54,085 nucleotides of DNA from a virus (taxonomy: Duplodnaviria; Caudoviricetes): positions 1-54,085 of the IMG/VR virus record IMGVR_UViG_3300030330_004653; one strand, written 5' to 3'. The notes beneath the pieces are model-generated. The model had not been told where the DNA came from. It did no database searches and saw only the letters and a list, made by a program, of their open reading frames with translations. A program made the position numbers and the translations under genes. Numbering within the stretch: the stretch's first letter is position 1; every line of letters begins with the position of its first letter. This document shows, piece by piece, positions 2 to 50,843 of this stretch.

Positions 2-99
2 TTGAGTGCGCTGTAGTGGCTCAGGGCGTTGGACTGTAGCGCGCATATCGATTCGATGCGCTCCAGCTCTGCGCGTAGCTTTGCGCGATCTCTCGCGCT
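2..99. repeat. Terminal direct repeat, left copy (98 bp, identical to 53988-54085)
   Basis: The first and last bases of the window match directly; base 1 (t) differs from 53987 (g). Most likely an assembly overlap of a circular genome. Confidence 0.95.
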
Positions 100-140
100 C
101 TTACCCTCGCGCCATTTGTCGTTTTCTTTTTGTTGTGGCA

Positions 141-308
141 TCAGGTCCCCAACGCGAACGCTATGGCTATCGCTCCGATAATGATAGCCGCCCCTGCCAG
201 TCGGCTGTCCTTTTTCTGGGTCAGGGGAGGGAGCTTGCGGTAGACTTTGCCATCGTTGCGTTTGTCACTGTAGCCCTGACGATGCAGGTGTGTCGGTAGT
301 TTTGTCAT
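141..308 (-). CDS. Small membrane protein, 55 aa (MTKLPTH...AAIIIGAIAIAFALGT)
   Basis: Translated by hand (below the ORF-track cutoff); CCAC leader and AGAGG RBS upstream; C-terminal hydrophobic segment. Confidence 0.65.
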   Translation of the reverse strand: MTKLPTHLHRQGYSDKRNDGKVYRKLPPLTQKKDSRLAGAAIIIGAIAIAFALGT

Positions 309-337
309 GTGGTCCTCTTGTGGTTTGATGTGGTGGT

Positions 338-583
338 TTAGACGTTGATCTTTGAGGGATAGCGCGACCAGTCTATCCAGACCCTCTCCTCACCGCGCTG
401 GATGCGTCCTGAGCGCGTGTAAGACGTAGTCTTGTCACTGTCAGGATCAACCACCTCAATCCTCTCCACCCCTTTGTTGAGCGCGAATAGGGTGTTGATC
501 ATACACCGCTCATGGTCTGTGTCGTTGTGGCTGGCTGGCAGGGTCAGGACCCTGACCGTTATATCTTTGTTTCTTAGTCCCAT
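338..583 (-). CDS. Hypothetical protein
   Basis: ORF track; tightly packed in the minus-strand operon. Confidence 0.6.
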   Translation of the reverse strand: MGLRNKDITVRVLTLPASHNDTDHERCMINTLFALNKGVERIEVVDPDSDKTTSYTRSGRIQRGEERVWIDWSRYPSKINV

Positions 584-600
584 CTTTGTTTCTTAGTCCC
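563..600. repeat. Perfect 19-bp tandem duplication (ATCTTTGTTTCTTAGTCCC x2)
   Basis: Copies at 563-581 and 582-600. Confidence 0.95.
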
Positions 601-946
601 TTCCGAACCCAAGCGGGAAGTCGACCCCTTCAGCCTCCGAAAGTAGATCCTCGACTTCACATAGAGCGCCATCAAAGTCGAGTGCATCCTCGCTAATGCT
701 TTCAAAGTCGAGATTGATAATCTCCTCAAGTTTTTCTGCTGTTGGGCTTCGCTGTAATCCCTCTGGCATATTGTCAAACCATTCTAAGTATTCCGCTTGC
801 ACCTCTTTGACCTCTTCGAGGCTCAACAAAACATCTGCTAATTTTTCTTTCGCGACGTCCGCTGCTTCGCGTAATTCTCCCATATTTACTTGCGCCGCGC
901 TAATGCCGTTGAGCCAGCGTTGACTGCGCGTGTTTTTCTTTGCCAT
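593..946 (-). CDS. Acidic coiled-coil hypothetical protein
   Basis: ORF 593..967; ATG at 946 preceded by TAAGGAGG. Confidence 0.75.
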   Translation of the reverse strand: MAKKNTRSQRWLNGISAAQVNMGELREAADVAKEKLADVLLSLEEVKEVQAEYLEWFDNMPEGLQRSPTAEKLEEIINLDFESISEDALDFDGALCEVEDLLSEAEGVDFPLGFGRD

Positions 947-963
947 ATTGAACCTCCTTAAGC

Positions 964-1170
964 TCATTTTGTGAGCTCCGTCCGGCTGTGGATTGATACG
1001 TGCATCGATTTGATCTCTTCGATTGTGTCAATAGCACGCTGAATTGATGTTGTTTTGGCTACGCAGAGACCCGCCTCAGTGAGGTCGGGGTCCCTGCTGC
1101 CACTGCCCTTGATCAGCTCCAGTTGGTTCTGGAGTCTGATCAGTTTGATGAGGATGTCCTTATGCAGCAT
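964..1170 (-). CDS. Hypothetical protein
   Basis: ORF with GGAGGAG RBS, overlapping the upstream gene. Confidence 0.7.
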   Translation of the reverse strand: MLHKDILIKLIRLQNQLELIKGSGSRDPDLTEAGLCVAKTTSIQRAIDTIEEIKSMHVSIHSRTELTK

Positions 1171-1579
1171 CGGCTTTCTCCTCCTCCGGTGTGCTCAGGT
1201 TTGGGTGTTTCCCTGCCTTGATCTGCTCCTCCATCAAGTAGGCGATCTCCTTGTGGCCGATAGCCTGCATGGATTTCCTCCGTGTGATGAGTCCAAAGAG
1301 CGTATCGATGTAGAGCTGGCACTCCTCTCTGCCCCTTTTTAAAATCTCATTCCTATCCTCGTCAGTTATTTGCCAAGAGGCTTTTCGTTCATAGGCTTTG
1401 TAATGCTCTGCTTCAAATAGGACAGAATCGAATGCTTCGCTATTGCCATCGCTAAACTGTGCATAGACAGCGGGGCAGCTTTCAAAGTTGCTGCTCCATT
1501 TGGCCTTCTTGTCTGCTATGAAAATTCTTGCTGTGTTGTCCAGATTTACGAGCTTCCCGCCTTGAGTTTTTAGCCACAT
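1160..1579 (-). CDS. Hypothetical protein
   Basis: ORF starting 2 bp after the helicase stop; AAGGAG RBS. Confidence 0.75.
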   Translation of the reverse strand: MWLKTQGGKLVNLDNTARIFIADKKAKWSSNFESCPAVYAQFSDGNSEAFDSVLFEAEHYKAYERKASWQITDEDRNEILKRGREECQLYIDTLFGLITRRKSMQAIGHKEIAYLMEEQIKAGKHPNLSTPEEEKADAA

Positions 1580-1581
1580 AT

Positions 1582-3534
1582 TTACTGCTCCTTTTTTGCG
1601 ATCTCAACGAGATCGGGTGAGAGTTGCCTACGATATTTATTGACCAGTTTGCGCCCCAGCAAAGCCTGCTTGGGGGATAGGGTGGTAGTTGAGGCCAGCG
1701 AGTGGCCTATGCTGGTGTCAAATTTGTTGAAGCCCATGTTGTCCTCCTCCCGTGCTCCATCACAATAGTCTGACAGGATCTTGAGACCCTTATGTATTGC
1801 AGCGATGGAGTCGGCTGGTAGGGTAGGCTGGGCGATCTCTTTGTCCGTGACCTCAACGGACCGCTCGACAGGGATCAATGCGATCTTGTCATCTAATTCA
1901 ATCTCGTTGTCGAGAGCAGCATCGATCACGCGCTGCTTGGCTACGACCTGCTCTGCGATGGTTGCGTCCAGCGACCCTTCGATGACGAGGTGCTGCACCA
2001 GCACGCTCTCGGTCTGTCCGATACGGTGAGCGCGATCTTCTGCTTGACTGAGGGTAGCGGGGACCCAGTCCAGTTCGGCAAAAACTACATGCGAGCTGGC
2101 TGTCAGGGTCAGGCCCACACCTGCCGCTTTCAGGTTGCCAACAAAGACATCCGCATGGCCTGCCTGAAAACTGTCCACGGCAGACTGGCGAGCGGCCATG
2201 CTATCGTTGCCCGTCAGGGTCACGACCCGTAGACCTCGGTCTCTCAGGTCGGTAGCGATGGTGTCAATAACATCCAGATGATGGGCGAACACGATGACCT
2301 GCTGACCGTCCGCTGCATCAGCGACATGGTCTACGACATACGAGGTTTTAGCGCGTGCCGTCTCATGCCTCACCTTAGCCATCTCTCCGAATGCCACTCT
2401 CGCGCCCTCTCTTAGGGCCTCTACGGCCTCCCGATACGCAGAAGTATCTTCGGCCACCTTGGCGAGCTGGACGGCAGAGCGCAGCTCTGAGAGCCTGTCC
2501 TCCTGACTCTGCCATGCGGCCTGCTCTGCTGCAACAACAGAGGACGCTCCGTTGGCGGGGATCTCAATGACCTGCCTGCGTTTGGCGGGTAGGTCATTGA
2601 GCACATCGGCCTTTAGTCGCCTGACGAGGATGGTCGAGCGGAGTTTTTCCTGTAGCTCCTCAAGGTTGGCCGCTCCAGAAAAGTCCCAGCCGAAGCCATT
2701 GTTGTGCGCGTTGGCATACCTCCGCGCATACCGGAAGAAATTGTCCCACTCGTCTGGGTCGAGGTAGCTGACCAGCGGCCACAGTTCGATGGGTCTGTTG
2801 ACGATGGGCGTGCCTGTCAGCAGCACGCGCCGCTTCGCTTTGATCGGCTCTTTAGTCCACTCTTTTTTCTTGTAGTTCCAGTGACCTACGAGGGCCTTGG
2901 TGCGTGCGGCTTTTGGGTTCTTCGCGTAGTGTGCCTCGTCTGCAATGAGCAGGTCCCAGTCGTGCTGATCGATGGTCTTACGATGCTTGGACAACACATC
3001 GTAGTTGATGATCAACACATCCGCATCGGCAGGGCATTTGCCCTTGTTGACGAGGCCGATGGTCAGGTCCTCGACCAGCCATTTCTCAGCCTCACGCTGC
3101 CAGTTGAGCCGCAGGCTGGCAGGGCAGACTATCAAGATCTTCTTCGCCTTGCTGGCGTTGGCGATACCGAGAGCCTGTATGGTTTTGCCCAGACCCATCT
3201 CGTCACCAATCAGCACGGCATCCTTGCCCAAACTGAACTGAATACCAGCACGCTGGTAGGGGAGGTATTCAAGTCCCGCAGGAGCGGGTATCTCTACATC
3301 AGCAGAGACCGCAGCCGATGCAGCCAGCGCGTCCCTCCGGTCCTGATCGGCCTGCTTTAACTCTTCGACCAGCTCGCTGTCTGCGTGGTCAATGAGCCTG
3401 CGTGCTTTGTTTATGTCATCCGTCCACCAAGTCCGCGCTGCTGGGTCCCAGCGGAACCCTGCTGACTTGGGGATATGCTTCTCCTCGTAGCTGCTCTCTG
3501 TCAGCCATTTCTTGCTTTGCTTATACAGCCTCAT
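1582..3534 (-). CDS. SNF2-family (HARP/SMARCAL1-like) helicase/ATPase
   Basis: Motifs LPYQ, GDEMGLGKT, DEAH, LTGTP, RRLK, GVGLTL and QAEDRAHRIGQ. Confidence 0.93.
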   Translation of the reverse strand: MRLYKQSKKWLTESSYEEKHIPKSAGFRWDPAARTWWTDDINKARRLIDHADSELVEELKQADQDRRDALAASAAVSADVEIPAPAGLEYLPYQRAGIQFSLGKDAVLIGDEMGLGKTIQALGIANASKAKKILIVCPASLRLNWQREAEKWLVEDLTIGLVNKGKCPADADVLIINYDVLSKHRKTIDQHDWDLLIADEAHYAKNPKAARTKALVGHWNYKKKEWTKEPIKAKRRVLLTGTPIVNRPIELWPLVSYLDPDEWDNFFRYARRYANAHNNGFGWDFSGAANLEELQEKLRSTILVRRLKADVLNDLPAKRRQVIEIPANGASSVVAAEQAAWQSQEDRLSELRSAVQLAKVAEDTSAYREAVEALREGARVAFGEMAKVRHETARAKTSYVVDHVADAADGQQVIVFAHHLDVIDTIATDLRDRGLRVVTLTGNDSMAARQSAVDSFQAGHADVFVGNLKAAGVGLTLTASSHVVFAELDWVPATLSQAEDRAHRIGQTESVLVQHLVIEGSLDATIAEQVVAKQRVIDAALDNEIELDDKIALIPVERSVEVTDKEIAQPTLPADSIAAIHKGLKILSDYCDGAREEDNMGFNKFDTSIGHSLASTTTLSPKQALLGRKLVNKYRRQLSPDLVEIAKKEQ

Positions 3535-3571
3535 GTGGTGGCCTCCATGTGGTGGTTTGTGGTGGATTTAA

Positions 3572-3600
3572 AATATAGTCTAATCAAGCATAATAATCAA
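3572..3600 (-). promoter_or_regulatory. Sigma70-like promoter upstream of the helicase
   Basis: TTGATT-N17-TATATT on the minus strand in an AT-rich gap. Confidence 0.6.
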
Positions 3601-3620
3601 TATACTACAGCACATGATTT

Positions 3621-3902
3621 TTAATAATCGTCATACGGAGTCCGTTCGCATACCTCCTTCGCAGCCGAGTCGAGAGCGGTCTCTTTGGCTGTCTCCAGAT
3701 CGGCATTACTTAACTCGTATTGACTATTTGTTTCATCATCGTCCCTGACTACGCTCTTGATCTCGACATCAGGATATTCTGCTGGCGTGGGCGCACCCCA
3801 TGTGGGGTAGGGGTTAGCTGGACGGCCTCCAGAAATATCTGCTGTGACCGTTACGTCTATTTCCTCATCGCAAGAAGTTGTCATTGAAAATGTTATTTCC
3901 AT
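3621..3902 (-). CDS. Acidic hypothetical protein
   Basis: ORF with TAAGGA RBS downstream of twister 1. Confidence 0.75.
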   Translation of the reverse strand: MEITFSMTTSCDEEIDVTVTADISGGRPANPYPTWGAPTPAEYPDVEIKSVVRDDDETNSQYELSNADLETAKETALDSAAKEVCERTPYDDY

Positions 3903-3934
3903 AGCGGGTCCTTATGTGGTTGGTGTGGTGTGAT

Positions 3935-4004
3935 CTGGGCTTGAGACCAGTATGCCTGACGGCATAGCGATTTAACAGCGGGGATGTCCCCGCTGCCTCT
4001 CATC
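3935..4004 (-). ncRNA. Twister ribozyme 1 (type-P5 permutation); predicted cut at 3974/3973
   Basis: GAT-GAGAG-[GCAGCGGGG acat CCCCGCTGT]-T^AA-ATC-GC-[TATGCC gtca GGCATA]-[CTGG TCTCAAGC CCAG]; matches the twister core (U^AA, GC, UCYCAAGC loop, GAGRG). Confidence 0.9.
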
Positions 4005-4614
4005 ATGGGTGAAGTGGACCTCCTCGCCTGAATGCTCTCCGCTCATCGCCCCGTGCAGCCTGCGCTGCGTCATACTCATCGGCTAAATATTTTTTTTCGG
4101 GGACGCTGACATCTATCGTGGGGCGATAGTCACCCAACGCATTGAGTAGGCCATCGAAGTCCTTAAATCCACTGTTGCGCTCGACTATATCGTCAAGCTC
4201 GACCAGCTTCTGCCTCTCTTCCTCTTCCTCTCCTTGTGTGGAAATTAGATTGAGCTTGTGATCGAACTCCACGGTCCCATTCCATTCAGACGCGTAGGGT
4301 TCATATTCCCTTAGCACATTCATCGCGTAAAGGCTATCGGCAGCATCCCACCCTCCAAAAAGTTGGAACCGGACCAGACTCAGGTCCATATCGTCTTTGA
4401 CGTTGCGTTCGATAATGTCTTCAATCCTCTCCTTGATACACTTGGCTGTCAGGTCTACGCCATAGGTCTCTCCCTCTGTGCCTTCGACTACGTTACCCTT
4501 GTATGTTGCGAAGATCCAAACGCCCCGTGACCTGACGGTCCACTGATCTACTTCCTTGCGTGCCTCTGCTCGCTGCTTTATAGCATCCTCTTTGATGATC
4601 TGGAAGTTTGTCAT
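4003..4614 (-). CDS. Hypothetical protein; stop codon overlaps the 5' end of twister 1
   Basis: 203-aa ORF; AAGGAGAGG RBS. Confidence 0.8.
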   Translation of the reverse strand: MTNFQIIKEDAIKQRAEARKEVDQWTVRSRGVWIFATYKGNVVEGTEGETYGVDLTAKCIKERIEDIIERNVKDDMDLSLVRFQLFGGWDAADSLYAMNVLREYEPYASEWNGTVEFDHKLNLISTQGEEEEERQKLVELDDIVERNSGFKDFDGLLNALGDYRPTIDVSVPEKKYLADEYDAAQAARGDERRAFRRGGPLHP

Positions 4615-4694
4615 TCTACCTCTCCTTGTGTGGTGGTTGTGACCAATCGCACGACCTTGGAATCGTGCTGGGCATTACAGCCCTTATATTCCAT
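4611..4694 (-). CDS. 27-aa small ORF (MEYKGCNAQHDSKVVRLVTTTTQGEVE)
   Basis: TAAGGAG RBS; ATGA overlap with the next gene; translated by hand. Confidence 0.4.
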   Translation of the reverse strand: MEYKGCNAQHDSKVVRLVTTTTQGEVE

Positions 4695-4703
4695 TTTGTC
4701 TCC

Positions 4704-4970
4704 TTATGCGTGGTGGATGTAGCGTGGCAGGCTGCGGATAAAACTCTCACTGTTTGTGTGTTTCTCGACAATAGCAGCACTCCACTTAGCTGGGTCAAGC
4801 TCTCCGGTCAAAGCCACGAAAAATTCTGGTGCATCTCGGTCCTCCTCAAGATACACATACTGACCGTCTGTGTAGCTGTATTTTGAGACAGTAATGCCAG
4901 CTTCCTTAACTGCCTGCACGCTGACCTGTAGCCAGCCGTGCGAGGGGTCTGTGTGGTAAGTAAATTTCAT
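4704..4970 (-). CDS. Conserved phage/plasmid hypothetical protein (HTDPSHGWL...YLEED motif)
   Basis: Probable start MKFTY at 4970 after a CCAC leader and AGGAG; the motif recurs in early genes of mobile elements. Confidence 0.7.
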   Translation of the reverse strand: MKFTYHTDPSHGWLQVSVQAVKEAGITVSKYSYTDGQYVYLEEDRDAPEFFVALTGELDPAKWSAAIVEKHTNSESFIRSLPRYIHHA

Positions 4971-5383
4971 GCGATCTCTCCTGTGGTGTGGTGGTGCGGT
5001 TCGTTTATCCATTCGCCATGGTCCCATCCATGGGGGCTGCTGATGGCGATGGGGTAGTGCGCGTAGGCTGGGCCTCCATCCTCCTTTACACGGCACTCTA
5101 TGCTGTAGCCTGAGCCGCTCGCATTGCGATGCACAGACCCAGTTCGCTTGACCCTGCGGTCATACGTAACGACCCCGCAGAGGCGATCCTGCGAGACCGT
5201 GATGGTGTCGAGGATCTGTATGCGGACATCCCTGCACTCTGTCCCTCTGATGAGCAGGGTGTTGCTCCTGCCGATGGTCAGCAGGTAATTGTCCAGCTCA
5301 TCTAATCCACAGAACTGGCAGGGGACCTGAGATCCATCAGCCAGCACTGCGGTGGCTCTGATCGGGCTTTTCGTTTCCCTCAT
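4967..5383 (-). CDS. Hypothetical protein
   Basis: ORF with ATGA coupling on both sides. Confidence 0.7.
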   Translation of the reverse strand: MRETKSPIRATAVLADGSQVPCQFCGLDELDNYLLTIGRSNTLLIRGTECRDVRIQILDTITVSQDRLCGVVTYDRRVKRTGSVHRNASGSGYSIECRVKEDGGPAYAHYPIAISSPHGWDHGEWINEPHHHTTGEIA

Positions 5384-5718
5384 ACCGCCCCCTCATGTGA
5401 TGAGTTGAGTGCGATTGTTTTGTTTACGTCCCCCTTAACCTCCAGACTGCTGGCATTGAGGTTGAAAGTTTTGAAATTTATCAGCCGATCATGGAGCGCA
5501 TCGACAGCCGTGCTGGGGCTGTCACCGAGGGCGAAAATCTCAAGGTTCCTCGTCCAATCATTATCGTCAATGTATTTGTGAAACGTCTGCTCAACCCGCA
5601 GGCCAGAGACGATCTTAGCGACCCATCCGAGCTGGCTGTGTATTCGGTAGACATGGGCCTGCAAGTGGTGGCCGTTCTCGACAACCGTTAATGACGGAGT
5701 TTTGTGTTCGTTGCCCAT
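5380..5718 (-). CDS. Hypothetical protein
   Basis: TAGGAGG RBS downstream of twister 2. Confidence 0.75.
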   Translation of the reverse strand: MGNEHKTPSLTVVENGHHLQAHVYRIHSQLGWVAKIVSGLRVEQTFHKYIDDNDWTRNLEIFALGDSPSTAVDALHDRLINFKTFNLNASSLEVKGDVNKTIALNSSHEGAV

Positions 5719-5751
5719 TTACTGCCTCCTATGTGGTGTGTGGTGGTTTGT

Positions 5752-5855
5752 CTGGGCTTGGGACCAGTATGCCGTCAGGCATAGCGATTTAACAGCGGAA
5801 GACCGTCTCGACATAGTGTGTCTGGTGGGTCGAGATCCTCCCGCTGCCCCTCATC
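5752..5855 (-). ncRNA. Twister ribozyme 2 (type P5, extended P1); predicted cut at 5791/5790
   Basis: GAT-GAGGG-[GCAGCGG...TCTCGAC...GTCGAGA...CCGCTGT]-T^AA-ATC-GC-[TATGCC tgac GGCATA]-[CTGG TCCCAAGC CCAG]. Confidence 0.9.
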
Positions 5856-5961
5856 AAAGTGGGTGCGGTTTGTTAGCTGAGATAGCGGGTCGCTGCTGCC
5901 CTGCCGCAAAGGCGCGACCCTCGCTCCAGTCACAACATGATAGTCTCCTATGTGGTGGTAT

Positions 5962-6273
5962 TTAGTGCCTATGTGGTGGTGTTAAGTCGAGCGCGGTCCC
6001 TCTCGGATATTTGACGCAGGACTCGCATTCGCAGTGCTCTACATCCCTCAACATGCCCCTGACCTCATCAATCGAATCGGCTGCGAAGGAGTGCCGATGC
6101 TCGTCTAATCGATACCCGTAGGTCAGTTCGACCCACCATGTAGTCCACACATAGCTGATGCTATGCACGGCTGGATGCGCCTCCAGCGAGGGCTTTGCCT
6201 GCTCGCCCTCGCGCCTCGCCTGTTCAATTGCCTGCCGCTCTGCGACAGTCTGTTTCCTGATGGTAAGCCTCAC
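5962..6273 (-). CDS. Hypothetical protein with a CxCxxC motif
   Basis: GTG start after TAAGGAGG. Confidence 0.7.
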   Translation of the reverse strand: MRLTIRKQTVAERQAIEQARREGEQAKPSLEAHPAVHSISYVWTTWWVELTYGYRLDEHRHSFAADSIDEVRGMLRDVEHCECESCVKYPRGTALDLTPPHRH

Positions 6274-6297
6274 ATGTGCCTCCTTATGTGGTGGTGG

Positions 6298-6546
6298 TTA
6301 TTGCTGGTTTATTTTGGTGTAGTAGAAAAACTTACGCTCAATGCCCTCCTCATCGATTTCGCCCCCATAACCTGCATAGTTATTTGTCTCATGCAGGATG
6401 TTTGTGAGCAGCACCTCAACGCCCTCCAGTCTGCCCTGTTTCTTTTCTTTGCTTGTTCCACACCATTTCGGTGGATTGTGGGTCTGAAGGTAGTTATTGG
6501 CGATCTCCAAAACGTCTGCCACTGCGATAGTCTTCTTGGGCCTCAT
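6298..6546 (-). CDS. Hypothetical protein
   Basis: TAAGGAG RBS and CCAC leader. Confidence 0.75.
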   Translation of the reverse strand: MRPKKTIAVADVLEIANNYLQTHNPPKWCGTSKEKKQGRLEGVEVLLTNILHETNNYAGYGGEIDEEGIERKFFYYTKINQQ

Positions 6547-6576
6547 GTGGTGTCTCCTTATGTGGTGTGTGGTGGT

Positions 6577-6601
6577 GGGGCAGGGCCATCCGACCCTGCC
6601 C
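6577..6601 (-). other. GC-rich intergenic hairpin without a U-tract
   Basis: GGGCAGGGTC-GGAT-GGCCCTGCCC between a stop codon and the next CCAC leader. Confidence 0.6.
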
Positions 6602-6607
6602 TGAATC

Positions 6608-6982
6608 CTATTGTCCGTATGCCTTCGCCCTCATCAATTTGCCAATCTCTTGAGTGCTCAATTTGTGGACGTTGTCATAGTATATTGCAGGCTCCCAAGC
6701 GTCATACAGCTCGTCATTGCATCGGGACTCAACGGTGGCCCATTTTTCATTAGCCCGAATCGCCTTGACCGTAGCCTTAGCTGATGCTTTCAGCCCCGCC
6801 CCGCCTTCGGGACCCCATGGGTCAGCATAAAACTCGGCATTGCTGAGTAGGTCATGGATGAGGATGTCATCCTCATCCAGATAGTAATGCTGGCGTGTAG
6901 TTTTGATGCGTCTCGGAATGGGTATAGAAGAAACCGTGTGGTCATCATAGAATTTTTGCGGTATGCGAATCAGTCCGGTCAT
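6608..6982 (-). CDS. Hypothetical protein
   Basis: ORF with GAGGGGG RBS. Confidence 0.7.
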   Translation of the reverse strand: MTGLIRIPQKFYDDHTVSSIPIPRRIKTTRQHYYLDEDDILIHDLLSNAEFYADPWGPEGGAGLKASAKATVKAIRANEKWATVESRCNDELYDAWEPAIYYDNVHKLSTQEIGKLMRAKAYGQ

Positions 6983-6984
6983 GG

Positions 6985-7284
6985 TTATATCCCCCTCTGG
7001 GGGTCATATTTCCCCGTCTCGCTGTCAAAGAAAGCATTTAGCCCCTGCCCAGCTATGTGTTCTACGACCCCATGAAAATTGCTGCTCCCGCTCATCTCGC
7101 CTGATGCGACCTTGCGGTCCCAAATCTCACAGATGTCAGCACGCTCCTCTGCTGTCATCGATGTGTTGTCATAGTCCCAGTAATAATTGGGTAAGAAGTA
7201 AGGTTTTCCGTTCCCTCCAATGCGCTGACGGATTCCATCAGCAACCATCTCGCTCTGTATCTGTCGCATTCTGTCGCGTGTCAT
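6985..7284 (-). CDS. Hypothetical protein
   Basis: TAGGAG RBS downstream of twister 3. Confidence 0.75.
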   Translation of the reverse strand: MTRDRMRQIQSEMVADGIRQRIGGNGKPYFLPNYYWDYDNTSMTAEERADICEIWDRKVASGEMSGSSNFHGVVEHIAGQGLNAFFDSETGKYDPQRGI

Positions 7285-7314
7285 GTTGATCTCCTATGTG
7301 GTGTGGTGGTTTAT

Positions 7315-7385
7315 CTGGGCTTGGGACCAGTATGCTCATTGAGCATAGCGACTTAATAGCGGGGATGTCCCCGCTACCCCTCGTC
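7315..7385 (-). ncRNA. Twister ribozyme 3 (type P5); predicted cut at 7355/7354
   Basis: GAC-GAGGG-[GTAGCGGGG acat CCCCGCTAT]-T^AA-GTC-GC-[TATGCTC aat GAGCATA]-[CTGG TCCCAAGC CCAG]; P1, P2 and P3 covary relative to copy 1. Confidence 0.9.
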
Positions 7386-7767
7386 AAGCTGCCTGCTTGC
7401 GCCTCTCAATCTCCCTGTCACAGGTGATCGTCCACTCCTTCAACTCCTTCTTGGTGCGGACGACAGCACCGTCTGTGACAAGCGCAATTCCATGCTCATC
7501 ACAGAACCCCGCCAGATTGAGGGGGTTGTACTTCATTTCATTGAGACCCTCGTCACCGTAGATCGGTGCGAGGTATTGCGACAGGCGATCAGTGGCATCC
7601 TGTAGCCACTGCGTCCCGTAGCCATAGGCGTATGGCTCATAAGCCAGCAGCCCGCTGGGCAGGCCCTCACCGCCAACATAAATCTTGTTAGCGTAGTAAG
7701 TGTTTCCGCTCGCATCCTGATACTTGCGGGCGAGGATGGTGATTGATGTGATTTTGATGGTAGCCAT
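7384..7767 (-). CDS. Hypothetical protein; stop codon overlaps twister 3
   Basis: TAGGAGG RBS downstream of twister 4. Confidence 0.8.
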   Translation of the reverse strand: MATIKITSITILARKYQDASGNTYYANKIYVGGEGLPSGLLAYEPYAYGYGTQWLQDATDRLSQYLAPIYGDEGLNEMKYNPLNLAGFCDEHGIALVTDGAVVRTKKELKEWTITCDREIERRKQAA

Positions 7768-7799
7768 TTTGGCCTCCTATGTGATGTGGTGTGTGGTGT

Positions 7800-7870
7800 C
7801 TGGGCTTGGGACCAGTGCGCCTGATGGCGCAGCGATTTAACAGCGAGCTACCCGCTCGCTGCCCCTCATC
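7800..7870 (-). ncRNA. Twister ribozyme 4 (type P5); predicted cut at 7839/7838
   Basis: GAT-GAGGG-[GCAGCGAGC gggta GCTCGCTGT]-T^AA-ATC-GC-[TGCGCC atca GGCGCA]-[CTGG TCCCAAGC CCAG]. Confidence 0.9.
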
Positions 7871-7877
7871 ATTTGTC

Positions 7878-8054
7878 TTACAGAGTGCTTGTCAAAATGT
7901 CACCTATGTCTCTGACGGCTAATTCCCACTGCCTGATACTGAGCCTGTAGTGCTCGTTTGCCAGCGGAGGATCAAACTCCCAGAGGTCTGTGTCTTCAAT
8001 GTCGTTGAGCCTGCGGATAATGATATTCAGTTCTCTGCGCTCGCTGCTCGTCAT
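7878..8054 (-). CDS. Hypothetical protein, 58 aa (MTSSERRELNII...)
   Basis: Translated by hand; GGGGAG RBS; fills the gap between 8058 and twister 4. Confidence 0.65.
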   Translation of the reverse strand: MTSSERRELNIIIRRLNDIEDTDLWEFDPPLANEHYRLSIRQWELAVRDIGDILTSTL

Positions 8055-8057
8055 GTT

Positions 8058-8237
8058 TTAGCTCCCCGCGATGATGCCAGCCGCGAGTGCGACCAGCCAG
8101 CCCAACCAGATGCCAGTCGGGACGTTTGTGATGGATGGGATATTGATGGTTGGAATACTGAGAGACAGAGCGTAACGGCCCGTGAACCGTCCCCGCTCGT
8201 CTCGTATGTGGGATGCAGTCAGCCAGCGATGTGTCAT
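8058..8237 (-). CDS. Small membrane protein
   Basis: Probable start MTHRW at 8237 (GGAGG RBS); C-terminal hydrophobic helix. Confidence 0.6.
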   Translation of the reverse strand: MTHRWLTASHIRDERGRFTGRYALSLSIPTINIPSITNVPTGIWLGWLVALAAGIIAGS

Positions 8238-8491
8238 GCTGCACCTCCATCGGACGGTAGGTTGCACACAAAGCGAAGGCGATCAAGAGCCTCCTCGTAG
8301 CTCTTGTATTCCCTCCCGTGACGGGTATTGCTGTAGGCATCGTATGTGACCACGCGCCAGCATTCTGGGGTCTCTCTCTTACCGGACCCTGCGACCTCCC
8401 AGCCTGCGCTGACATGCACAAGCTGGAAGAGTTTAGTCTGACGATACCCGCCAGTCCCAGCCTTCAGTGTTGTTTCGATTGAGCGATCCAT
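8234..8491 (-). CDS. Hypothetical protein
   Basis: GGAGG RBS; TAATG coupling with the upstream gene. Confidence 0.7.
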   Translation of the reverse strand: MDRSIETTLKAGTGGYRQTKLFQLVHVSAGWEVAGSGKRETPECWRVVTYDAYSNTRHGREYKSYEEALDRLRFVCNLPSDGGAA

Positions 8492-8643
8492 TAGCGCACC
8501 TCCGTCAGGCCAAGAGTGCGGAGCGTGATGCGATACTGCCTGTCGCGCTCCTCACGGTATTTTTCTACCGAGTGGGCGAGTGCAGTAACGGCTGCGCCTG
8601 CACCGATGAAAGCCGCGCAGATAGCGATGAATGTGTAGTCCAT
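8491..8643 (-). CDS. First early gene; 50-aa protein with an N-terminal membrane helix (MDYTFIAICAAFIGAGAAV...)
   Basis: Translated by hand; AGGGAG RBS downstream of twister 5. Confidence 0.65.
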   Translation of the reverse strand: MDYTFIAICAAFIGAGAAVTALAHSVEKYREERDRQYRITLRTLGLTEVR

Positions 8644-8673
8644 GTGGTGTCTCCCTGTGGTGTGGTGGTTTGT

Positions 8674-8753
8674 CTGGGCTTGAGACCAGCGCAGCTAACC
8701 GCTGCGGCACGTTAATCAGCAGCACCTGCATGATGCGCTGCTGACCTCTCCGT
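8674..8753 (-). ncRNA. Twister ribozyme 5 (type P5); predicted cut at 8714/8713
   Basis: ACG-GAGAG-[GTCAGCAGC...GCTGCTGAT]-T^AA-CGT-GC-[CGCAGC ggtta GCTGCG]-[CTGG TCTCAAGC CCAG]; most divergent copy, with all helices kept. Confidence 0.88.
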
Positions 8754-8759
8754 ATAAGA

Positions 8760-8976
8760 TGTTTGTGGTGGCTGCTCGACACTGTCACGGTGTGTCGCTA
8801 CCGCCTGCTGCTGCGTGGTGGCTTACTCTTGTTTTGCGCTCTCCCCTCCGAGGGTGTGGTGTCGAGCGTCGAGGCATCAGCAGGTCGTTAAGTGCATCCC
8901 GTTACACTGGCCCTGAAGACTCTTGTCAGTCGATGCGGTGTGCAGGATGCGCGTGGCTGCCGCCAGCGGCCTGCGA
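8760..8976 (-). ncRNA. Candidate structured non-coding leader RNA
   Basis: No RBS-supported ORF; stems GCTCGACAC/GTGTCGAGC (8774-8782/8859-8867), GCATCCTG/CGGGATGC and GCAGG/CCTGC. Confidence 0.45.
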
Positions 8977-8995
8977 TATTCAATTTTCAAAGATC
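8977..8995 (-). promoter_or_regulatory. rrn-leader-like boxA (Nus antitermination) element
   Basis: GATCTTTGAAAATTGAATA about 15 nt after the predicted transcription start. Confidence 0.6.
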
Positions 8996-9016
8996 AATCA
9001 ATCAACTTCGACCCTA

Positions 9017-9045
9017 AAGATAGTCGGGTGAGCTATACTTGTCAA
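9017..9045 (-). promoter_or_regulatory. Strong sigma70-like early promoter
   Basis: TTGACA-N17-TATCTT with an upstream T-tract, at the point where strand polarity switches. Confidence 0.8.
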
Positions 9046-9144
9046 GAAAAAATCACACATGAGGTTAAGATTGTCCTGTGATTATGTTGTTTAACAGCAC
9101 CTAAGTCGTTAAATTACAAGCAATAGAAAAAAGGAGAGAGAAAC

Positions 9145-9606
9145 ATGCCCAGAGCAAAGAAAAGTGTGTTGACAGTCGAAATGCTGCCACCTCATGTCCA
9201 GCCATATGTCCCTAAAGGACTGGCAGACAGCGACTTACCGTTGTGGTATGCTGCTTTTGAGACTGGCCGCAGCGCGCAAACGGGGACATCCCCGCCTGAA
9301 AAAACTCCCCCCAGCAGGACTGCTGCAAAGCTACCTGCCATGCCGATACCTGAACCCTCTAACATTATAGAGATGAAGAATTATGGTGACCCTGAAGACG
9401 CTGACGATACGCTTGACGGGCTGCTGGGATACGCTCGACAGGCACGGCCCCAGATCGATAGTGCTCGACTGGCAGAGATCGCTCCACAGCACGATGAGAT
9501 AGCTAAATGGCTAAAGGCTAAGAGTCTGCCCAGCGGCAGGGTGATGGACAGCATATTGGACAATGTTATTGAGCGCACACCAGCAGTGCTAAAGACGGCA
9601 GGATAA
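9145..9606 (+). CDS. Hypothetical protein
   Basis: AAGGAG RBS; first gene of the plus-strand block. Confidence 0.75.
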   Translation: MPRAKKSVLTVEMLPPHVQPYVPKGLADSDLPLWYAAFETGRSAQTGTSPPEKTPPSRTAAKLPAMPIPEPSNIIEMKNYGDPEDADDTLDGLLGYARQARPQIDSARLAEIAPQHDEIAKWLKAKSLPSGRVMDSILDNVIERTPAVLKTAG

Positions 9607-9638
9607 TAACAACAGCGGCAGAGAGAGATAGAGAGAGA

Positions 9639-10082
9639 ATGAGCGAATCCATAAATCCCATAAATATGGATCAAAGGATCAATAAATCAGAGGAAAAGCG
9701 GCTAAAAACACCGGAAACATACCGCAACCACCTCAACCAGTACCGCAACCCTGACGGCACATTCACCAAGGGCAAGGCCGTAGGCAGGCCAAAGGGGGCC
9801 AGAAACAAGGTTACAGCCAGTCAGAAGATCTCTGAAGTCGAGCAGCGGATGGGTGTGACGCTCGACCCATTGGAGGGCATGGCACAGATAGCTGCTGACG
9901 AGACGAACGACATACAGGTCAGGCTGGCTGCGTTCAGGGAGATGGCGAAGTATCTGTATGCGCAGCGTAAAGCGGTGGACATGTCTATTGAGGAGACGAG
10001 AGGCGAAGCCAGCAGCCTGAGCGACAGCGACCTTGAGTCTATCATACAGGCAGACTTTGGGGGGAGTGAAGAGCAGGCTTAG
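9639..10082 (+). CDS. terS: Terminase small subunit (putative)
   Basis: G-T-F-x-KG...GRPKG-x-RNK motif; position upstream of terL. Confidence 0.7.
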   Translation: MSESINPINMDQRINKSEEKRLKTPETYRNHLNQYRNPDGTFTKGKAVGRPKGARNKVTASQKISEVEQRMGVTLDPLEGMAQIAADETNDIQVRLAAFREMAKYLYAQRKAVDMSIEETRGEASSLSDSDLESIIQADFGGSEEQA

Positions 10083-10368
10083 ACTCACCATAATAGGTAT
10101 TATCGTTAGTTAAAATCTGGGGTGGGGGAGGGCGTTTTCCTCCTTTTTTAGCCCTCTCCTGCTCCTCCTGTGAAACACGTGGAACGCTGCCGGTCTCTGT
10201 GAAACATTGTTCCACGGCCTGGCAGGGGGGGGGTAGGGGGGTCTCAGGGCAGCATGGGGGGGATACCACAAAACCGAGAATCGCAGGGGGTGGGGGCAAG
10301 ATGCATAAGGACCCACCCATACATATCGCACATAACTTTTTCATTTATGGCACTCCATAGGAGTCAGC

Positions 10369-26184: not shown

Positions 26185-27405
26185 ATGAGCATTTTTGCAG
26201 GACTCGCACAGGGATTTGCACAAGGCGCAATGGCAGCTATGCCTGCCGCTACAGATAGATATGTCCAAGCTCGCAGGAGGGCCAAGGAGCGGAAGCAAAC
26301 AATAGAAGATCGTGAAAAGGCTCGCGCACAGAATTTAGAAGATGAGCGAAGAAGAGAAATGGTTGGCCTAAAGACAACCTTTGCCAAATTAGGGGGGCGG
26401 GATCTTGGAGAGAATGCTACCCCAGAAATGTATAGGAATGAAATAGCTGCTTATACAATCGACGATGAGTATAACTCAAAGCGCAGTCAATTGCAGCAGT
26501 CAGGTATTGACCCAACAAATATGGACCATAATCAAATTGATCAGGCCATTGCAAATCTGGGTCTAACAACTGCTGAAAGATTAGCAACTGAAGATGAAAT
26601 TCGTAAAAACAATCTTGAAAGTAGCAGGCGGCAGCAGCTTGTAGGGCATAAACAGTATATGCATTTAGAGCAAGGTGGTTATGCGACAGAAGATATGTTA
26701 GAGAGGGATGATACGGGAAAAGTAATTGGATACAATCAGACATTGTTGAATGAAGGGTCTGAAAGACAAAGGCAAGACAAGTTAGCACAGAGTAATCAAG
26801 CAAGGATGTCGAGAGATGAGCCGTATTCAATTGTAGCTAAGACAGACCAAATAAATAGAATTAAAAGTCTGGTAGATCATGCAGGATTTGATGGAGGTTT
26901 TGCTGAAGTTTTAAAAGTCAGCTTGGACACTTATATGGGTAACCCGACTGCAACCACATGGAATGCCCTTGAGAGAAGCTATGGTCGATGGTTTCAGGGA
27001 AGAGACAAAGATCCTCAAATGGGTACACCAATTGGCAAGCCTTATGGACAGATAGCATCTGATAAGCTCGCAATGAGACAGGCAATGGGGGGAGACGTAT
27101 TGCAAGGATTCCCTCTTTTGTCGTATGGATTAAAGCCATCGACAGGTGGTGGTGTGCAGTCAACGGTTGCTGAAACACAAACAACAATCCCAATAGGGGA
27201 ATCAAAGCCTAATACTACGGACTCCATAACGCCTTCCTTCTCTACAGGTAACACCTCTGGATCTGCCTCAATCGATTCATTGGGTGGTGGGAGTAATCTA
27301 TCAAATCTTACTCTTCCGCAAATAATGGGTATAGCTGCTGATGACGGACATCCAGATAATAAGGAAGCAGTTAGGATTGTAAGAGAAGGAGGGTATACGG
27401 AATAA
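26185..27405 (+). CDS. Internal virion protein (putative)
   Basis: G/A-rich amphipathic N-terminus (FAGLAQGFAQG); position. Confidence 0.65.
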   Translation: MSIFAGLAQGFAQGAMAAMPAATDRYVQARRRAKERKQTIEDREKARAQNLEDERRREMVGLKTTFAKLGGRDLGENATPEMYRNEIAAYTIDDEYNSKRSQLQQSGIDPTNMDHNQIDQAIANLGLTTAERLATEDEIRKNNLESSRRQQLVGHKQYMHLEQGGYATEDMLERDDTGKVIGYNQTLLNEGSERQRQDKLAQSNQARMSRDEPYSIVAKTDQINRIKSLVDHAGFDGGFAEVLKVSLDTYMGNPTATTWNALERSYGRWFQGRDKDPQMGTPIGKPYGQIASDKLAMRQAMGGDVLQGFPLLSYGLKPSTGGGVQSTVAETQTTIPIGESKPNTTDSITPSFSTGNTSGSASIDSLGGGSNLSNLTLPQIMGIAADDGHPDNKEAVRIVREGGYTE

Positions 27406-30400
27406 TGCCACTCACTCCTGAAGAAAAAGAGCGTCTATTAAGCAGAAAGAGAGAGCTTGAGTTAGGAGTCACCCAGCCTTCTACTGGGCTTACTTCTGAA
27501 GAAAAAGAGCGTCTATTAAAAAGAAAGCGCGAGCTTGAATTAGGGATAACCCAGCCTCCTGCTGGGGCAACTCCGCGCCAACAGAGACTTGCCAATACGT
27601 TCAGTGCGGGGATGTCCCCGCCCACTCAGCCTACCCCTGAACGCACATTCGGATCTGTCAGAGGACGCACCCGTGCGCGTGATACGGGACAGATAACGCG
27701 CCCTGTTGTTTCTCCTCCACCTCTTATCACTGAGCCTCCATCTCCTCTTGATTATTTCGATAAGCTCAGTCGATCATATGATCTTTCATCTCAAAGAATG
27801 GATTTGCAGTCTAATGTATTAGACCTGACAAAATTAAATCTTACAGACGATGAAAAGGTCGCAAGGGCTAATGAGCTTGTTGTACAAAGAGACAAGATAG
27901 ACCAAGAGCTTTCTACGATGGAAAGTGATTCTTATATCGGTGACATAGGAATCATGGCTGCAAGTATTGCGCCATCCATAGTCGAAACAACAAAGAGAAG
28001 TCTTTATGGTGCAGGATCAGGAGCAGCTATCGGTGGTGTTACAGCAGGACCAGTAGGGGCCTTAGCAGGCGCAAAAACAGGCTTTGTAACAGGTGGACTG
28101 GTATACACTGCCAATGAAGGCTATGGAGCAGCATATCTTGACGCAATAAAAGATGGCAGGAGCCATGAGGTTGCAGTTGCTACGGCAACAGGTTTCGCGC
28201 CTGTTTATGCTGCATTGAGTAGGCTTCAAATAGGCAATGTGTTAAATAGCGTTTTAGGAAAGAGCCTTAATAAAAAAGTAGCTTCAGATATTATGCCTTC
28301 GGTTTACAATAAGTTTGTAAACAAGGCCGAAGAGCTGGGGAAGAGGGCTGGCCCTGTAGGCACAACGGCTGCTCGGATAACAGCAGACACCGTTGTCGAG
28401 ACGTTTTCTGAAGTAGCGCAAGACTACGCTAATCTTAGTGCGCGTGAGCTGGCATCCCGCTATGAAGAAGGAGAAGGTCTTTCTAAACAGGAATGGGACA
28501 GAAGTATTGGTGATTATATGGATATGGCAGTTGCCTTATCTGTGATCACAGGCACTCCCACAGCCGCTATGGCTGGCATTGATAGGGGAGTCAAAGTAAA
28601 GAATGCAAAAAAATTAATTAAGGCATCCAATCCAGAGTTTCTTGAAAATGACTTAGGGGTTGATACTTCTCAAAAAGTGGGAAATCAAGTCCGTCAAGTT
28701 ATAAGCATGATGGAGGATGGCAGCTTAAAACAGAGAATTGAAGCAAGTAGGTCATTGGGTGATGAGCAAGGTTTAGGCAGCACGCCTCAAATACTTACTG
28801 ATGATGAAGTTAGTTCGATTAGAAACAAATCTATTGAGCTGGCGGTAAAGCAGGGATTTGAACCCGATAGTCCAGCATTGCAAAAAAGAGTTGAATCTGC
28901 TATTGCAGCGGCTAACATTAGTTTAGATAGGTATCAAGAAATTGATACCTTCCTAACAGATGCTTTAAAAGAGCTTGCTGTAGAAAACCCACTATGGGAT
29001 GATACGCGCACCAGCTTTGTTCGCGCTGAGAGGGAAGCTGACTTCCAAGCTGATATGCTCTCTACAGACGGCAAGCCCACAGGAGCGCGTGTATACGTCA
29101 AGACAAAGCCTGATGGCATAACGGAAGCCATTATTACTGATGCCAACAATCAGGCTCTCACGCCCATTGTAGACAAGTCTTACGATGAGGTTGTGCGTCA
29201 GTTGCAGTATTATGGCGATGCCAATGTCGGGTCGTTGATAGTCAACAAAGACAACATAGAGATAGTAGGTCGTGACGAGCAGGCCGTAGCGCAACAGGTT
29301 GCCAACCGATCTAAGCCTGATGTCCGAAGGATTCACCAATGGCGCGAGACTGAGGTCCAAGGCCCACTGCAAGAAGGTGGAGCTGAATCCGAGGTGCAGC
29401 GCACGCCTGAAACCGTTGAGGATGCAGGACCTGTATTTGGGGAAGAAACCTCTAAGGCTGCATTCCTAACCCAGCAACTACAGATAGTAGAGGGGACAAA
29501 TGATGTCGCTGCCCAGCGACAGATTATAAGCGGTATTCAAGATCTCGTAGCTAAGGGCGAGATATCGCAGCGAATGTATGAGGCAGCGATTCGCAAACTT
29601 CCTGCTCGGTTTGATGATATTCTGTTTCCGGAGTTGGAAGCACAGCGTGAGCGCGATTTGCAGCAGCGAGTGCGGGACCGTGAAGAAAGAGAAGTTTCTG
29701 AGCAGGCTGAAGCTGACCGCATTGCTCGCCAGCAAAGCGCAGTAGGAATCCCCGATGAGACAAGACAATCCAATGTCAGACAGGCACAGGAAGATCGGCC
29801 TGTTGAGGGGATGGAAAACATAATAGACCCCACAGGGGGGATGACATTACGTGAGGATGCGGAAGACTTTTTACTGGATGAGCTGCTTGACGATTCAGAT
29901 CCTTCGCCAACTCAAGAAGAGCAGCCTGCTACCCCAAGGGTCTCTGATACCGTGGTTCAAGAGCCACAGGTTGAGCCAGAACCTACACCAGAAGTAACGG
30001 AGCAAGAAGATGCCAGAGGACGCGAGTCCGTTCGGACTTACGACGAGAGCGACCCAAGCCCACCAGTTAGCCACGTGGGGACAGCTCTACCCGAAGTCGA
30101 GCAACCAATTGTATCTGTCAGGGAGACTGAGGCAGCTACTGGTAGACGCGCTTCGGGACAGACTTCGCTCATTGGAAAAAGAGTCTCTGATGCAAAGTCA
30201 CTCGGTTTAGCTTTTGAGCCACTGCGGAACACTCAGTCTGAGTGGACCTACATAGTCCTAAGAAATGGGGATACTGGCGAAATCTTATCTGTAGACGGCC
30301 ACAGCTTTAACTTGCCTGCTCAATCTCCATCGGCCAGAGACTTTGCTATATCACGTAGAGGTGATGCCAGATTTAGAGAGCAGCTAAGAGATCGTGTATC

Positions 30401-45794: not shown

Positions 45795-45958
45795 TGCAAT
45801 TCTCCCTGTTTTGTGGTGTGTGGTGATGGTGTTTAACTCCCCCCCGAAATTACCACTTTCCACACGCGACATACAAGTGAACAAGTGTTCACATGTGCAT
45901 TTTTATAAGGGATTTATTGCTTTTTTTAAATGGTTTTATTGCTGTAGAGGCAATTTCA

Positions 45959-46000
45959 CTGATTACAAATCAGGTGCTCTACCAGTTGAGCTAAAGCGGC
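45959..46000 (-). tRNA. 5' half of tRNA-Thr(UGU) (not an intact gene as oriented)
   Basis: GCCGCTTTAGCTCAACTGGTAGAGCACCTGATTTGTAATCAG, then non-tRNA sequence. Confidence 0.9.
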
Positions 46001-46123: not shown

Positions 46124-46178
46124 ATAAAAAAAACTCCCCCCAATCACGCAACTTTTATTGCGTATGATTGGGGGGAGT
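46124..46178 (-). terminator. Terminator ending the minus-strand replication module, inside the candidate invertible segment
   Basis: ACTCCCCCCAATCA...TGATTGGGGGGAGT stem followed on the minus strand by a T-run. Confidence 0.7.
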
Positions 46179-46218
46179 AATCAGGAGGTTACGGGTTCGA
46201 TTCCCGTAGGCGGCTCCA
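46177..46218 (+). tRNA. 3' half of tRNA-Thr ending in CCA (not an intact gene as oriented)
   Basis: GTAATCAGGAGGTTACGGGTTCGATTCCCGTAGGCGGCTCCA; T-arm present; AGGCGGC pairs with GCCGCTT of the 5' half. Confidence 0.9.
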
Positions 46219-46608: not shown

Positions 46609-46631
46609 TGGTCCTCTTATGGTGGTGGTGG

Positions 46632-46814: not shown

Positions 46815-46913
46815 CTCGCCCTCCAACTAAAGTTGTGTGGGGAGGAAGGTAGGGAATCCCCTACACAAAAATATTTTTTTCGTGTACACCTACCTGCCCT
46901 CCCCACGTTATGA

Positions 46914-50818: not shown

Positions 50819-50843
50819 GACCTAATTTGCATGGAGTCAGATT

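Follow-up and report, generated by a model that had tools for sequence, protein, structure and literature searches.

Five elements with the features of type-P5 twister ribozymes lie on the minus strand of an uncultured tailed phage genome, recorded in IMG/VR as IMGVR_UViG_3300030330_004653. The window analysed here is the whole of that virus record (54,085 bases, rated 100% complete by CheckV). All five elements occur within 5 kb of a long leftward operon, and they are numbered from copy 1, nearest the gene for an SNF2-family helicase, to copy 5, ahead of the first gene (g1). They are probably genuine twisters that would cut the polycistronic RNA of this operon into units without the help of a protein.

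3935-4004, minus strand: twister copy 1, between g14 and g15; RF02684 score 41.9 bits; predicted cut 3974/3973; fold z -4.30
5752-5855, minus strand: twister copy 2, between g9 and g10; RF02684 score 39.1 bits; predicted cut 5791/5790; fold z -2.92
7315-7385, minus strand: twister copy 3, between g5 and g6; RF02684 score 47.2 bits; predicted cut 7355/7354; fold z -3.83
7800-7870, minus strand: twister copy 4, between g4 and g5; RF02684 score 44.6 bits; predicted cut 7839/7838; fold z -3.24
8674-8753, minus strand: twister copy 5, in the 5' leader before the first gene; found with custom models; predicted cut 8714/8713

The twister class was reportedly described by Roth et al. in 2014. When the whole window was searched on both strands with 4227 Rfam families at the gathering threshold, four matches were obtained. 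All were to Twister-P5 (RF02684, clan CL00120, cut-off 37.6 bits), on the minus strand and at full length (model positions 1-58), with E-values of 9e-07 to 1e-04. They correspond to copies 1 to 4, and their boundaries coincide exactly with those of four of the five type-P5 twisters that a preliminary description of this DNA had placed on the minus strand. The covariance-model search proposed there as a check thus brought copies 1 to 4 above the RF02684 cut-off and left copy 5 below it. Two custom models were used for the fifth element. A covariance model built from copies 1-4 (R1) detected copy 5 at full length with 47.4 bits and no mispair, the runner-up in the window scoring 15.1 bits (filters off). 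A second model (R2), trained solely on 30 twister matches from nine phage loci outside this genome, returned exactly the five elements of the window at E≤1 with 46.7-61.4 bits (46.7 for copy 5); note that its training alignment was gathered and fitted with R1, and R2 is therefore not fully independent. The Rfam miss of copy 5, the core of which is GAGAG, is taken as due to its divergent P2 (ACG/CGT) and its 13-nt P1 loop. The sole Rfam match at this site was to twister-P1 at 8645-8718, a reading in which the Shine-Dalgarno (SD) region serves as the return strand. It was rejected on its score (25.9 bits at a cut-off of 67.2) and on the non-standard pairs flagged. Any RF02684 match at this site would score lower still. 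No other ribozyme class was found in the window in the Rfam E-value search, the leftover weak matches (tRNA, 27.2 bits; tmRNA, 15.9 bits; others) being sub-threshold. Judged from sequence, the identity as type-P5 twister is secure for copies 1-4 and has good support for copy 5, in line with the preliminary description.

A script parsed all five copies into the same order of elements: a 3-nt P2a, GAGRG, the P1 hairpin, U^AA, P2b, GC, the P3 hairpin and CTGG-TCYCAAGC-CCAG, with P2b the exact complement of P2a in every copy. This reproduces the order given in the preliminary description, and the five scissile positions predicted there came out identical. The conserved nucleotides of the RF02684 consensus (GAG.G, UAA, GC and GGUC.CAAGCCC, in L1, L4 and the GC of T2) are present in 5/5 copies. 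The P4 16-mer CTGGTCYCAAGCCCAG has five exact occurrences in the window; allowing up to three mismatches, 0.98 matches were expected, and five were reached in none of 100 shuffles. Like RF02684, the elements combine a conserved core with two pseudoknots, T1 (3 pairs) and T2 (2 pairs), each complementary in all five copies. They differ from the Rfam family in a P2 of 3 pairs, in having the optional P3 hairpin throughout, in lacking a P5 helix and in the sub-threshold score of copy 5. The type-P5 circular permutation is evident from termini at the P5 position and a loop-closed P1; by eye, a P5 helix is impossible with the CA-rich 3' flank. In the twister class, catalytic roles belong to the first G of GAGRG and to the A 3' of the cut. 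The conserved A and U of twister are covered in section 8 of PMC5408937, which also names P1, P2 and P4 as the essential stems. In P2 (3 bp), outer P1 (4 bp scored) and P4 (3 bp), every cell pairs in 5/5 copies. The P1 hairpins fold at -15.9 to -25.7 kcal/mol, and the minimum free energy fold of each copy by itself gives P2, P1, P3 and P4. We found no aptamer-like extra domain in the five copies, P1 and P3 being plain hairpins save for the long branched P1 of copy 2.

The five-copy alignment was scored for covariation in P2, P4 and the pseudoknots T1 and T2, in five pairs of P3 and in the four outermost pairs of P1; the inner half of this last stem, where MAFFT misaligns copies 2 and 5, was omitted. 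Standard pairs occupied 100 of 100 cells, and 12 of the 20 pairs had changed on both sides: 3/3 in P2, 5/5 of those scored in P3, 3/4 of those scored in P1, and the middle pair of T1. None of 500 shuffles equalled these values, and slid 3' partners paired in 29-38% of cells, with the reservation that only five related sequences were compared and that shuffles ignore relatedness. The claim of the preliminary description that the helices covary is borne out by these counts. The register switch of the T1 pseudoknot that it pointed out is also real, the middle pair being G-C in three copies and A-U in two; twisters of other phages have matched T1 variants of their own (by eye, GAGGA with UUCC and GAUGG with UCCA). 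Such a density of compensation, in paralogues with differing loops and flanks, is what selection on the fold produces.

To place the ribozymes in their operon, the gene chain was assembled from tiled minus-strand open reading frames (ORFs) with SD sequences. It runs from the leader and copy 5 through g1-g4, copy 4, g5, copy 3, g6-g9, copy 2, g10-g14 and copy 1 to g15, the SNF2-family helicase gene and onward.

9017-9045, minus strand: sigma-70-like promoter match, TTGACA-17-TATCTT (10/12; consensus match only), ~265 nt upstream of copy 5
7878-8643, minus strand: gene block g1-g4 (50, 85, 59 and 58 amino acids); predicted 875-nt unit between cuts 8713 and 7839
7384-7767, minus strand: g5 (127 amino acids), a lone gene with a ribozyme on either side; predicted 484-nt unit
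5962-7284, minus strand: gene block g6-g9 (99, 124, 82 and 103 amino acids); predicted 1564-nt unit
4003-5718, minus strand: gene block g10-g14 (112, 138, 88, 27 (uncertain) and 203 amino acids); predicted 1817-nt unit
1582-3902, minus strand: g15 (93 amino acids) and the SNF2-family helicase gene (650 amino acids), downstream of the last ribozyme

All five ribozymes are on the coding strand between co-directional genes. With at least 16 genes in the series, they delimit blocks (the leader, then 4, 1, 4 and 5 genes, then the rest) rather than every cistron, and they partition the promoter-proximal 5 kb. The distance from the end of the ribozyme to the next start is 30, 32, 30, 33 and 32 nt. 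The stop codon of g14 (TGA, 4005-4003) overlaps the first two bases of copy 1, and that of g5 (TGA, 7386-7384) overlaps the first two bases of copy 3. The preliminary description had reported an intergenic, sense-strand siting with two stop-codon overlaps and a spacing of about 30-35 nt, all of which was confirmed, the measured spacing being 30-33 nt. If the match at 9045-9017 is a promoter, copy 5 would remove the primary 5' end of the transcript. No convincing minus-strand terminator was found among the ribozymes. The designation 'early operon' is plausible from position and gene content. Scans of the small operon proteins against Pfam and PHROG gave nothing informative: g2 (8234-8491), the sole member of g1-g4 scanned, had no PHROG match, the members of g6-g9 that were scanned had no Pfam or PHROG match, those of g10-g14 had no family match, and g5 matched phrog_6246, for which no function is annotated.

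Every ribozyme is followed by a CA-rich run and an SD sequence, of the form ACCACCACACCACA-TAGGAG.

8644-8673, minus strand: leader and SD after copy 5, ACCACCACACCACA-GGGAGA; 30 nt to the ATG at 8643
7768-7799, minus strand: leader and SD after copy 4; 32 nt to the ATG at 7767
7285-7314, minus strand: leader and SD after copy 3; 30 nt to the ATG at 7284
5719-5751, minus strand: leader and SD after copy 2; 33 nt to the ATG at 5718
3903-3934, minus strand: leader and weak SD after copy 1; 32 nt to the ATG at 3902

Allowing up to two mismatches, the motif CCACCACAYAGGAG occurs 10 times (0.71 expected). CA-rich runs number 30 on the minus strand versus 4 on the plus strand, and 14 of the 30 have an SD-like motif and a start within 20 nt. 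The full unit (ACCACCACACCACA, TAGGAG, 5-8 nt, ATG) precedes 14 leftward gene starts, from 8669 to 329 and from 53519 to 46620. The CA-rich leader precedes none of the plus-strand structural genes, and it is kept in the related contigs L122, L123, L124 and L290. All fourteen leader-start units sit in the leftward gene series, most without a preceding ribozyme, so that the leader is a property of the operon, with ribozymes inserted before some of the leaders. The leader itself may enhance translation, bind a protein or serve as a linker for recombination.

Two further features lie between the ribozymes. On the minus strand at 5937-5929, a two-codon ORF (ATG TTG TGA) comes after a complete CA leader and SD, and ~70 nt of non-coding sequence separate it from copy 2; the arrangement resembles what a deleted cassette would leave behind. 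An RNA element at 5856-5965, upstream of copy 2, was considered and rejected, as the fold there is not significant (z -0.52). Between g7 and the CA leader of g8, a 10-bp GC-rich hairpin with no U-tract (6578-6601, minus strand; -23.5 kcal/mol and z -3.09 for a 66-nt stretch) occupies the niche taken elsewhere by the ribozymes. Its possible roles are those of a 3' stabiliser or of an RNase III-type site.

The setting of the operon is that of a temperate phage. Genes for the large terminase, the portal and the major capsid protein lie on the plus strand, and on the minus strand are those for the SNF2-family helicase, a DnaB-type primase-helicase, a Mom-like protein and a tyrosine integrase. These structural genes on the plus strand, together with an integrase among the minus-strand genes, mark the source as a temperate tailed phage. 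With terminase, portal, capsid and integrase present, the array belongs to a phage, and with several coding-strand ribozymes flanking genes or gene blocks, its layout is that of a phage operon. An identical metagenome contig (L291) continues from 46351-54085 directly into 2-6871. The ends of the record (1-98 and 53988-54085) repeat each other over ~98 nt with one mismatch near the start. Bridging by L291 and the end repeat indicate that the record ends are contiguous and the genome circular or circularly permuted, though it is classed as linear. The minus-strand genes form one long leftward series starting near 9000.

We analyzed the recurrence of such arrays in other phages. The P4 16-mer was found in 79 IMG/VR stretches, and the whole records of 50 of these, picked to limit repeats from one sample series, were scanned. 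Twister-P5 was present at E≤0.001 in 39/50 records and above the cut-off in 32/50. Arrays of 4-10 same-strand matches within a few kb occurred in 6/50, two of which (G008 and G032) have identical ribozymes. An Rfam scan of eight array loci at E≤0.01 gave 34 Twister-P5, 7 twister-P1 and 1 hammerhead-III match, the classes sometimes mixed; note that all 7 twister-P1 matches and the hammerhead-III match were below their own gathering scores. By a permissive pattern, 39 of these 42 ribozyme matches have an SD-like motif and a start 11-49 nt downstream; in other arrays it is also frequent for a stop codon to touch or overlap the ribozyme at its 5' end. Among 50 records encoding a helicase relative, three have Twister-P5: the two next-closest informative relatives, L123 (helicase 64% identical), with one match upstream of the helicase gene, and L124 (63% identical), with seven matches upstream of it, and in addition L141 (50% identical), with ten matches around it. 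CA-rich leaders follow the ribozymes in L123 and L124 as well. A ribozyme pattern specific to the present subfamily was found in no viral contig and in three metagenome contigs, one of them from the same phage.

Individual arrays vary in composition. L120 (G042:C1:40000-50000) combines, in one same-strand array, Twister-P5 with a sub-threshold hammerhead-III and three sub-threshold twister-P1 matches. L119 (G010:C1:14000-21000) has two Twister-P5 matches with P3, one of them sub-threshold at 35.4 bits, and two sub-threshold twister-P1 matches. In both, each ribozyme lies 18-49 nt ahead of a start. The densest arrays, in the unrelated records L114 (G047:C1:15000-27000) and L141 (G070, 3322-10089), consist of ten Twister-P5 matches on one strand within ~7 kb; in L114 an SD follows within ~5 nt after the ribozyme.

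The arrangement can be compared with known systems of transcript processing. In the T7 early transcript, host RNase III cuts at intergenic structured sites and leaves 5'-phosphate and 3'-OH ends. In both cases an early polycistronic phage RNA would be cut intergenically into hairpin-ended mRNAs. However, a protein enzyme acts in T7, whereas self-cutting by the RNA would here produce 5'-OH and 2',3'-cyclic phosphate ends, and the likeness is a functional analogy only. Closer are the clusters of hammerhead ribozymes in prophages, where, according to section 6 of Perreault et al. 2011 (PMC3088659), multiple hammerheads often flank single genes or short gene blocks. The same section proposes that long phage transcripts are cut to operon- or gene-length mRNAs, and reports that three tandem hammerhead arrangements cleaved during in vitro transcription. 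The present array shares with those clusters several coding-strand ribozymes around single genes or short blocks of phage genes; it differs in that it is made of twisters known from sequence, while in vitro cleavage was shown for the hammerheads. According to reviews (PMC6765202 section 13, PMC5408937 section 13 and the introduction of PMC4604425), it is common for twister and hammerhead ribozymes to occur near phage genes and within a few kb of one another, and processing of polycistronic mRNA has been suggested for both (PMC6765202 section 13). Thus, the idea of processing is not new, having been proposed for prophage hammerheads and suggested for twisters, and the five-twister operon is a tidy model case of a layout that had been reported before for ribozymes associated with phages. 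Here five copies of one class share 5 kb, whereas other phage records have 4-10 twisters or mixed classes.

Constitutive, co-transcriptional self-cleavage is the best-supported reading of the array. On the nascent polycistronic RNA, each ribozyme would fold (P2, P1, the optional P3, P4, T1 and T2) and cut between U and AA. The stop codon would remain on the upstream product, closed at its 3' end by the stable P1 hairpin and carrying there, as expected from the twister class, a 2',3'-cyclic phosphate. The first nucleotide of the downstream product would have a 5'-OH; behind it would come the hairpins P3 and P4, then the CA-rich leader, which is unstructured, and a strong SD. Since the two products would be held together by P2 (3 bp) and T1 (3 bp) alone, they should separate readily. 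The predicted products are a discarded 5' leader, units of 875 nt (g1-g4), 484 nt (g5), 1564 nt (g6-g9) and 1817 nt (g10-g14), and the remainder after the last cut, which carries the helicase gene. Cleavage in vivo might benefit the phage in that every unit would receive the same 5' UTR (untranslated region), whatever its context, and a hairpin cap at its 3' end. Neighbouring cassettes would thereby be uncoupled in stability and translation in a region of frequent cassette exchange. Processing of the polycistron is a reasonable functional idea, and nothing in the present data contradicts it.

Several observations nevertheless weigh against this reading. Copy 5 (8674-8753) fails the RF02684 gathering threshold and went unreported at E≤10 when the phage's own genome was searched with this model, four matches being obtained out of eight candidates, and the model R2 that recovers it shares part of its making with R1. 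P2 has 3 pairs versus 4 in the Rfam consensus, the core-adjacent pair being deleted in the Rfam alignments. The preliminary description had raised the short P2 as a caveat; P2 is indeed shorter than 4 bp, but this is not an oddity, as the same 3-bp P2 recurs in the twisters of the phage record L116, which score 51-57 bits on RF02684. A survey of related phages, also proposed there, gave a divided answer: arrays of 4-10 copies recur in other phages, as described above, but among the records with helicase relatives Twister-P5 is present in only 3/50. In L122, a contig whose helicase is 97% identical in protein (~91% in DNA), the junction of copy 1 has no ribozyme. The ribozyme is therefore not required to express the downstream genes, including that of the helicase, and L122 is easier to reconcile with an accessory role, whether in modulation or in insulation, than with an essential one; L289 (92% identical) retains copy 1. 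Finally, in hosts with RNase J1 a 5'-OH end promotes decay, as shown for glmS (cited in PMC6765202 section 13), so that the direction of any effect on stability depends on the RNases of the host.

Comparison with relatives also bears on how genes are exchanged at these sites. In L122, 4982-3927 of the window (g12-g14 and copy 1) is replaced by 628 nt with other small genes. Both breakpoints are inside CA-rich leaders; the leader before g15 is kept, and homology resumes at 3927. L290 has the order g4-like gene, copy-4-like twister, g9-like gene, new gene, copy-3-like twister, g5 homologue, g6-like gene and g11-like gene. The copy-3-like module of L290, 107 nt long and made up of ribozyme, leader and SD, shares 95% identity with 7389-7282, while the genes on either side differ. 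The g5 homologue (46% identical) is in another position, and a g9 homologue takes the place of g5 after the copy-4-like module. No relatives of g5 and g14 were found in viral contigs. When contigs from four other metagenome runs (DNA only) were aligned to the window at 85% likeness, 7 of the 11 joints listed, by our own mapping, ended in or within ~10 nt of a ribozyme or leader (for example 4005, 5739, 7792, 7797/7798, and 6290 with 6567), and the rest at other gene boundaries. This evidence is only suggestive, because placement below 95% likeness and repeats may mislead. Our literature search, which covered sources other than the primary twister papers and their supplements, found no paper describing twister-leader modules as cassette junctions. 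That the unit of ribozyme, CA-rich leader and SD marks points of cassette exchange in relatives is a suggestive and modestly new angle, resting on a handful of relatives.

Similar modules are known in other settings. RiboJ is an engineered insulator in which a self-cleaving ribozyme before the ribosome binding site (RBS) fixes the 5' UTR whatever lies upstream. The PeSL cassettes of T4-type phages are repeated intergenic modules at the boundaries where small early genes are shuffled; they contain promoters and no ribozyme. The unit described here resembles RiboJ, apart from the latter being engineered, in placing a ribozyme before an RBS, and PeSLs in being repeated at shuffling boundaries, but with a ribozyme in place of promoters. 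Tentatively, twister, leader and SD might form a portable junction module, acting as a natural insulator at the level of RNA and as homology for swaps of ORFan cassettes among marine phages at the level of DNA.

A reading compatible with self-cleavage shifts the weight to DNA: the unit would act mainly as a portable exchange junction, cleavage being secondary or tolerated. The swap in L122 with both breakpoints in leaders, the L290 module amid different genes, the copy-4-like module before a g9 homologue instead of g5, and the 7/11 joints at ribozymes or leaders are what it would lead one to expect, although few genomes are involved and repeats may misplace alignments. Against this, the helices and T1 are kept by compensatory changes and the catalytic nucleotides are invariant, which argues for selection on RNA and not on DNA homology alone. 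Ribozyme-free leaders also occur at breakpoints, so the ribozyme is not needed for exchange, and with repeated modules an aligner may pick the wrong copy and create apparent joints at module edges. We consider this account unlikely as the principal explanation.

It is improbable that cleavage is a conditional switch, in which terminating ribosomes unfold the ribozyme, or ions tune it, and so set the ratio of long to short transcripts. A salt-tuned control has been proposed for a haloarchaeal virus hammerhead in section 11 of PMC3088659, and the two stop codons that overlap ribozyme 5' ends here, like several in other arrays, would suit control by ribosomes. However, three of the five copies have no such overlap, and the ribozymes are built of simple hairpins, except for P1 of copy 2, with no domain resembling an aptamer.

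The 5'-OH and 2',3'-cyclic phosphate ends of the twister class fit the substrate of RtcB, and the units between ribozymes could be circularised by an RtcB-type ligase of the host, or by the reverse twister reaction, into exonuclease-resistant mRNAs. For clustered hammerheads, circular or spliced products were considered, though undetected (PMC3088659 section 6). Such a fate is very improbable here: the P2 and T1 halves of successive ribozymes mismatch across most units, and no sequence feature brings the two ends of a unit together. That the motifs are inactive relics or chance look-alikes of twisters, as might be supposed from the failure of copy 5 with the Rfam model, a P2 one pair short of the consensus and the many predicted ribozymes that fail when assayed (PMC8782182, introduction), is extremely unlikely in view of the E-values of the four Rfam matches, perfect pairing with 12 compensated pairs, the drop to 15.1 bits for any further match in the window, and the position of all five on the sense strand at gene boundaries.

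The tentative reading of twister, leader and SD as a portable junction module would have consequences beyond this phage. If it is correct, arrays of up to 10 modules per operon would amount to a widespread protein-free alternative to RNase III- or RNase E-dependent processing, and operon processing based on such modules would tolerate constant gene shuffling. The role of bacterial and phage twisters is described as largely unknown in section 13 of both PMC6765202 and PMC5408937. The present operon offers a clean natural case, with one ribozyme class, five covarying paralogues, one operon, defined product sizes and a complete 54-kb genome. Relatives that lack or rearrange single copies provide natural controls, making the case suited to testing whether cleavage insulates or stabilises phage cistrons. 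That the phage is uncultured is a practical limit on work with it.

With regard to the source, sequencing runs of DNA that contain this phage or relatives of it bear the label of marine or seawater metagenomes; none of the 22 runs listed is of RNA. A megablast of 3500-9000 against the cultured-phage collection gave no match, and the closest cultured-phage proteins are a helicase of a Thermus phage (42%) and a terminase of a Pseudanabaena phage (53%). A search of genome contigs with the helicase yielded neither a host nor a prophage copy; the best relative, in assorted metagenome-assembled genomes, was 53% identical. Adjoining the integrase gene (44601-45884) are a tRNA-like match (45915-46000, minus strand; 27.2 bits) and a tmRNA-like match (46128-46208, plus strand; 15.9 bits), both sub-threshold. 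They may represent an attP site overlapping a fragment of a tRNA or tmRNA gene, which could help to identify the host. In the structural region, a single ORF of 3817 amino acids occupies 27405-38858 on the plus strand; its sole Pfam match is a RadC-like JAB domain at residues 1014-1065.

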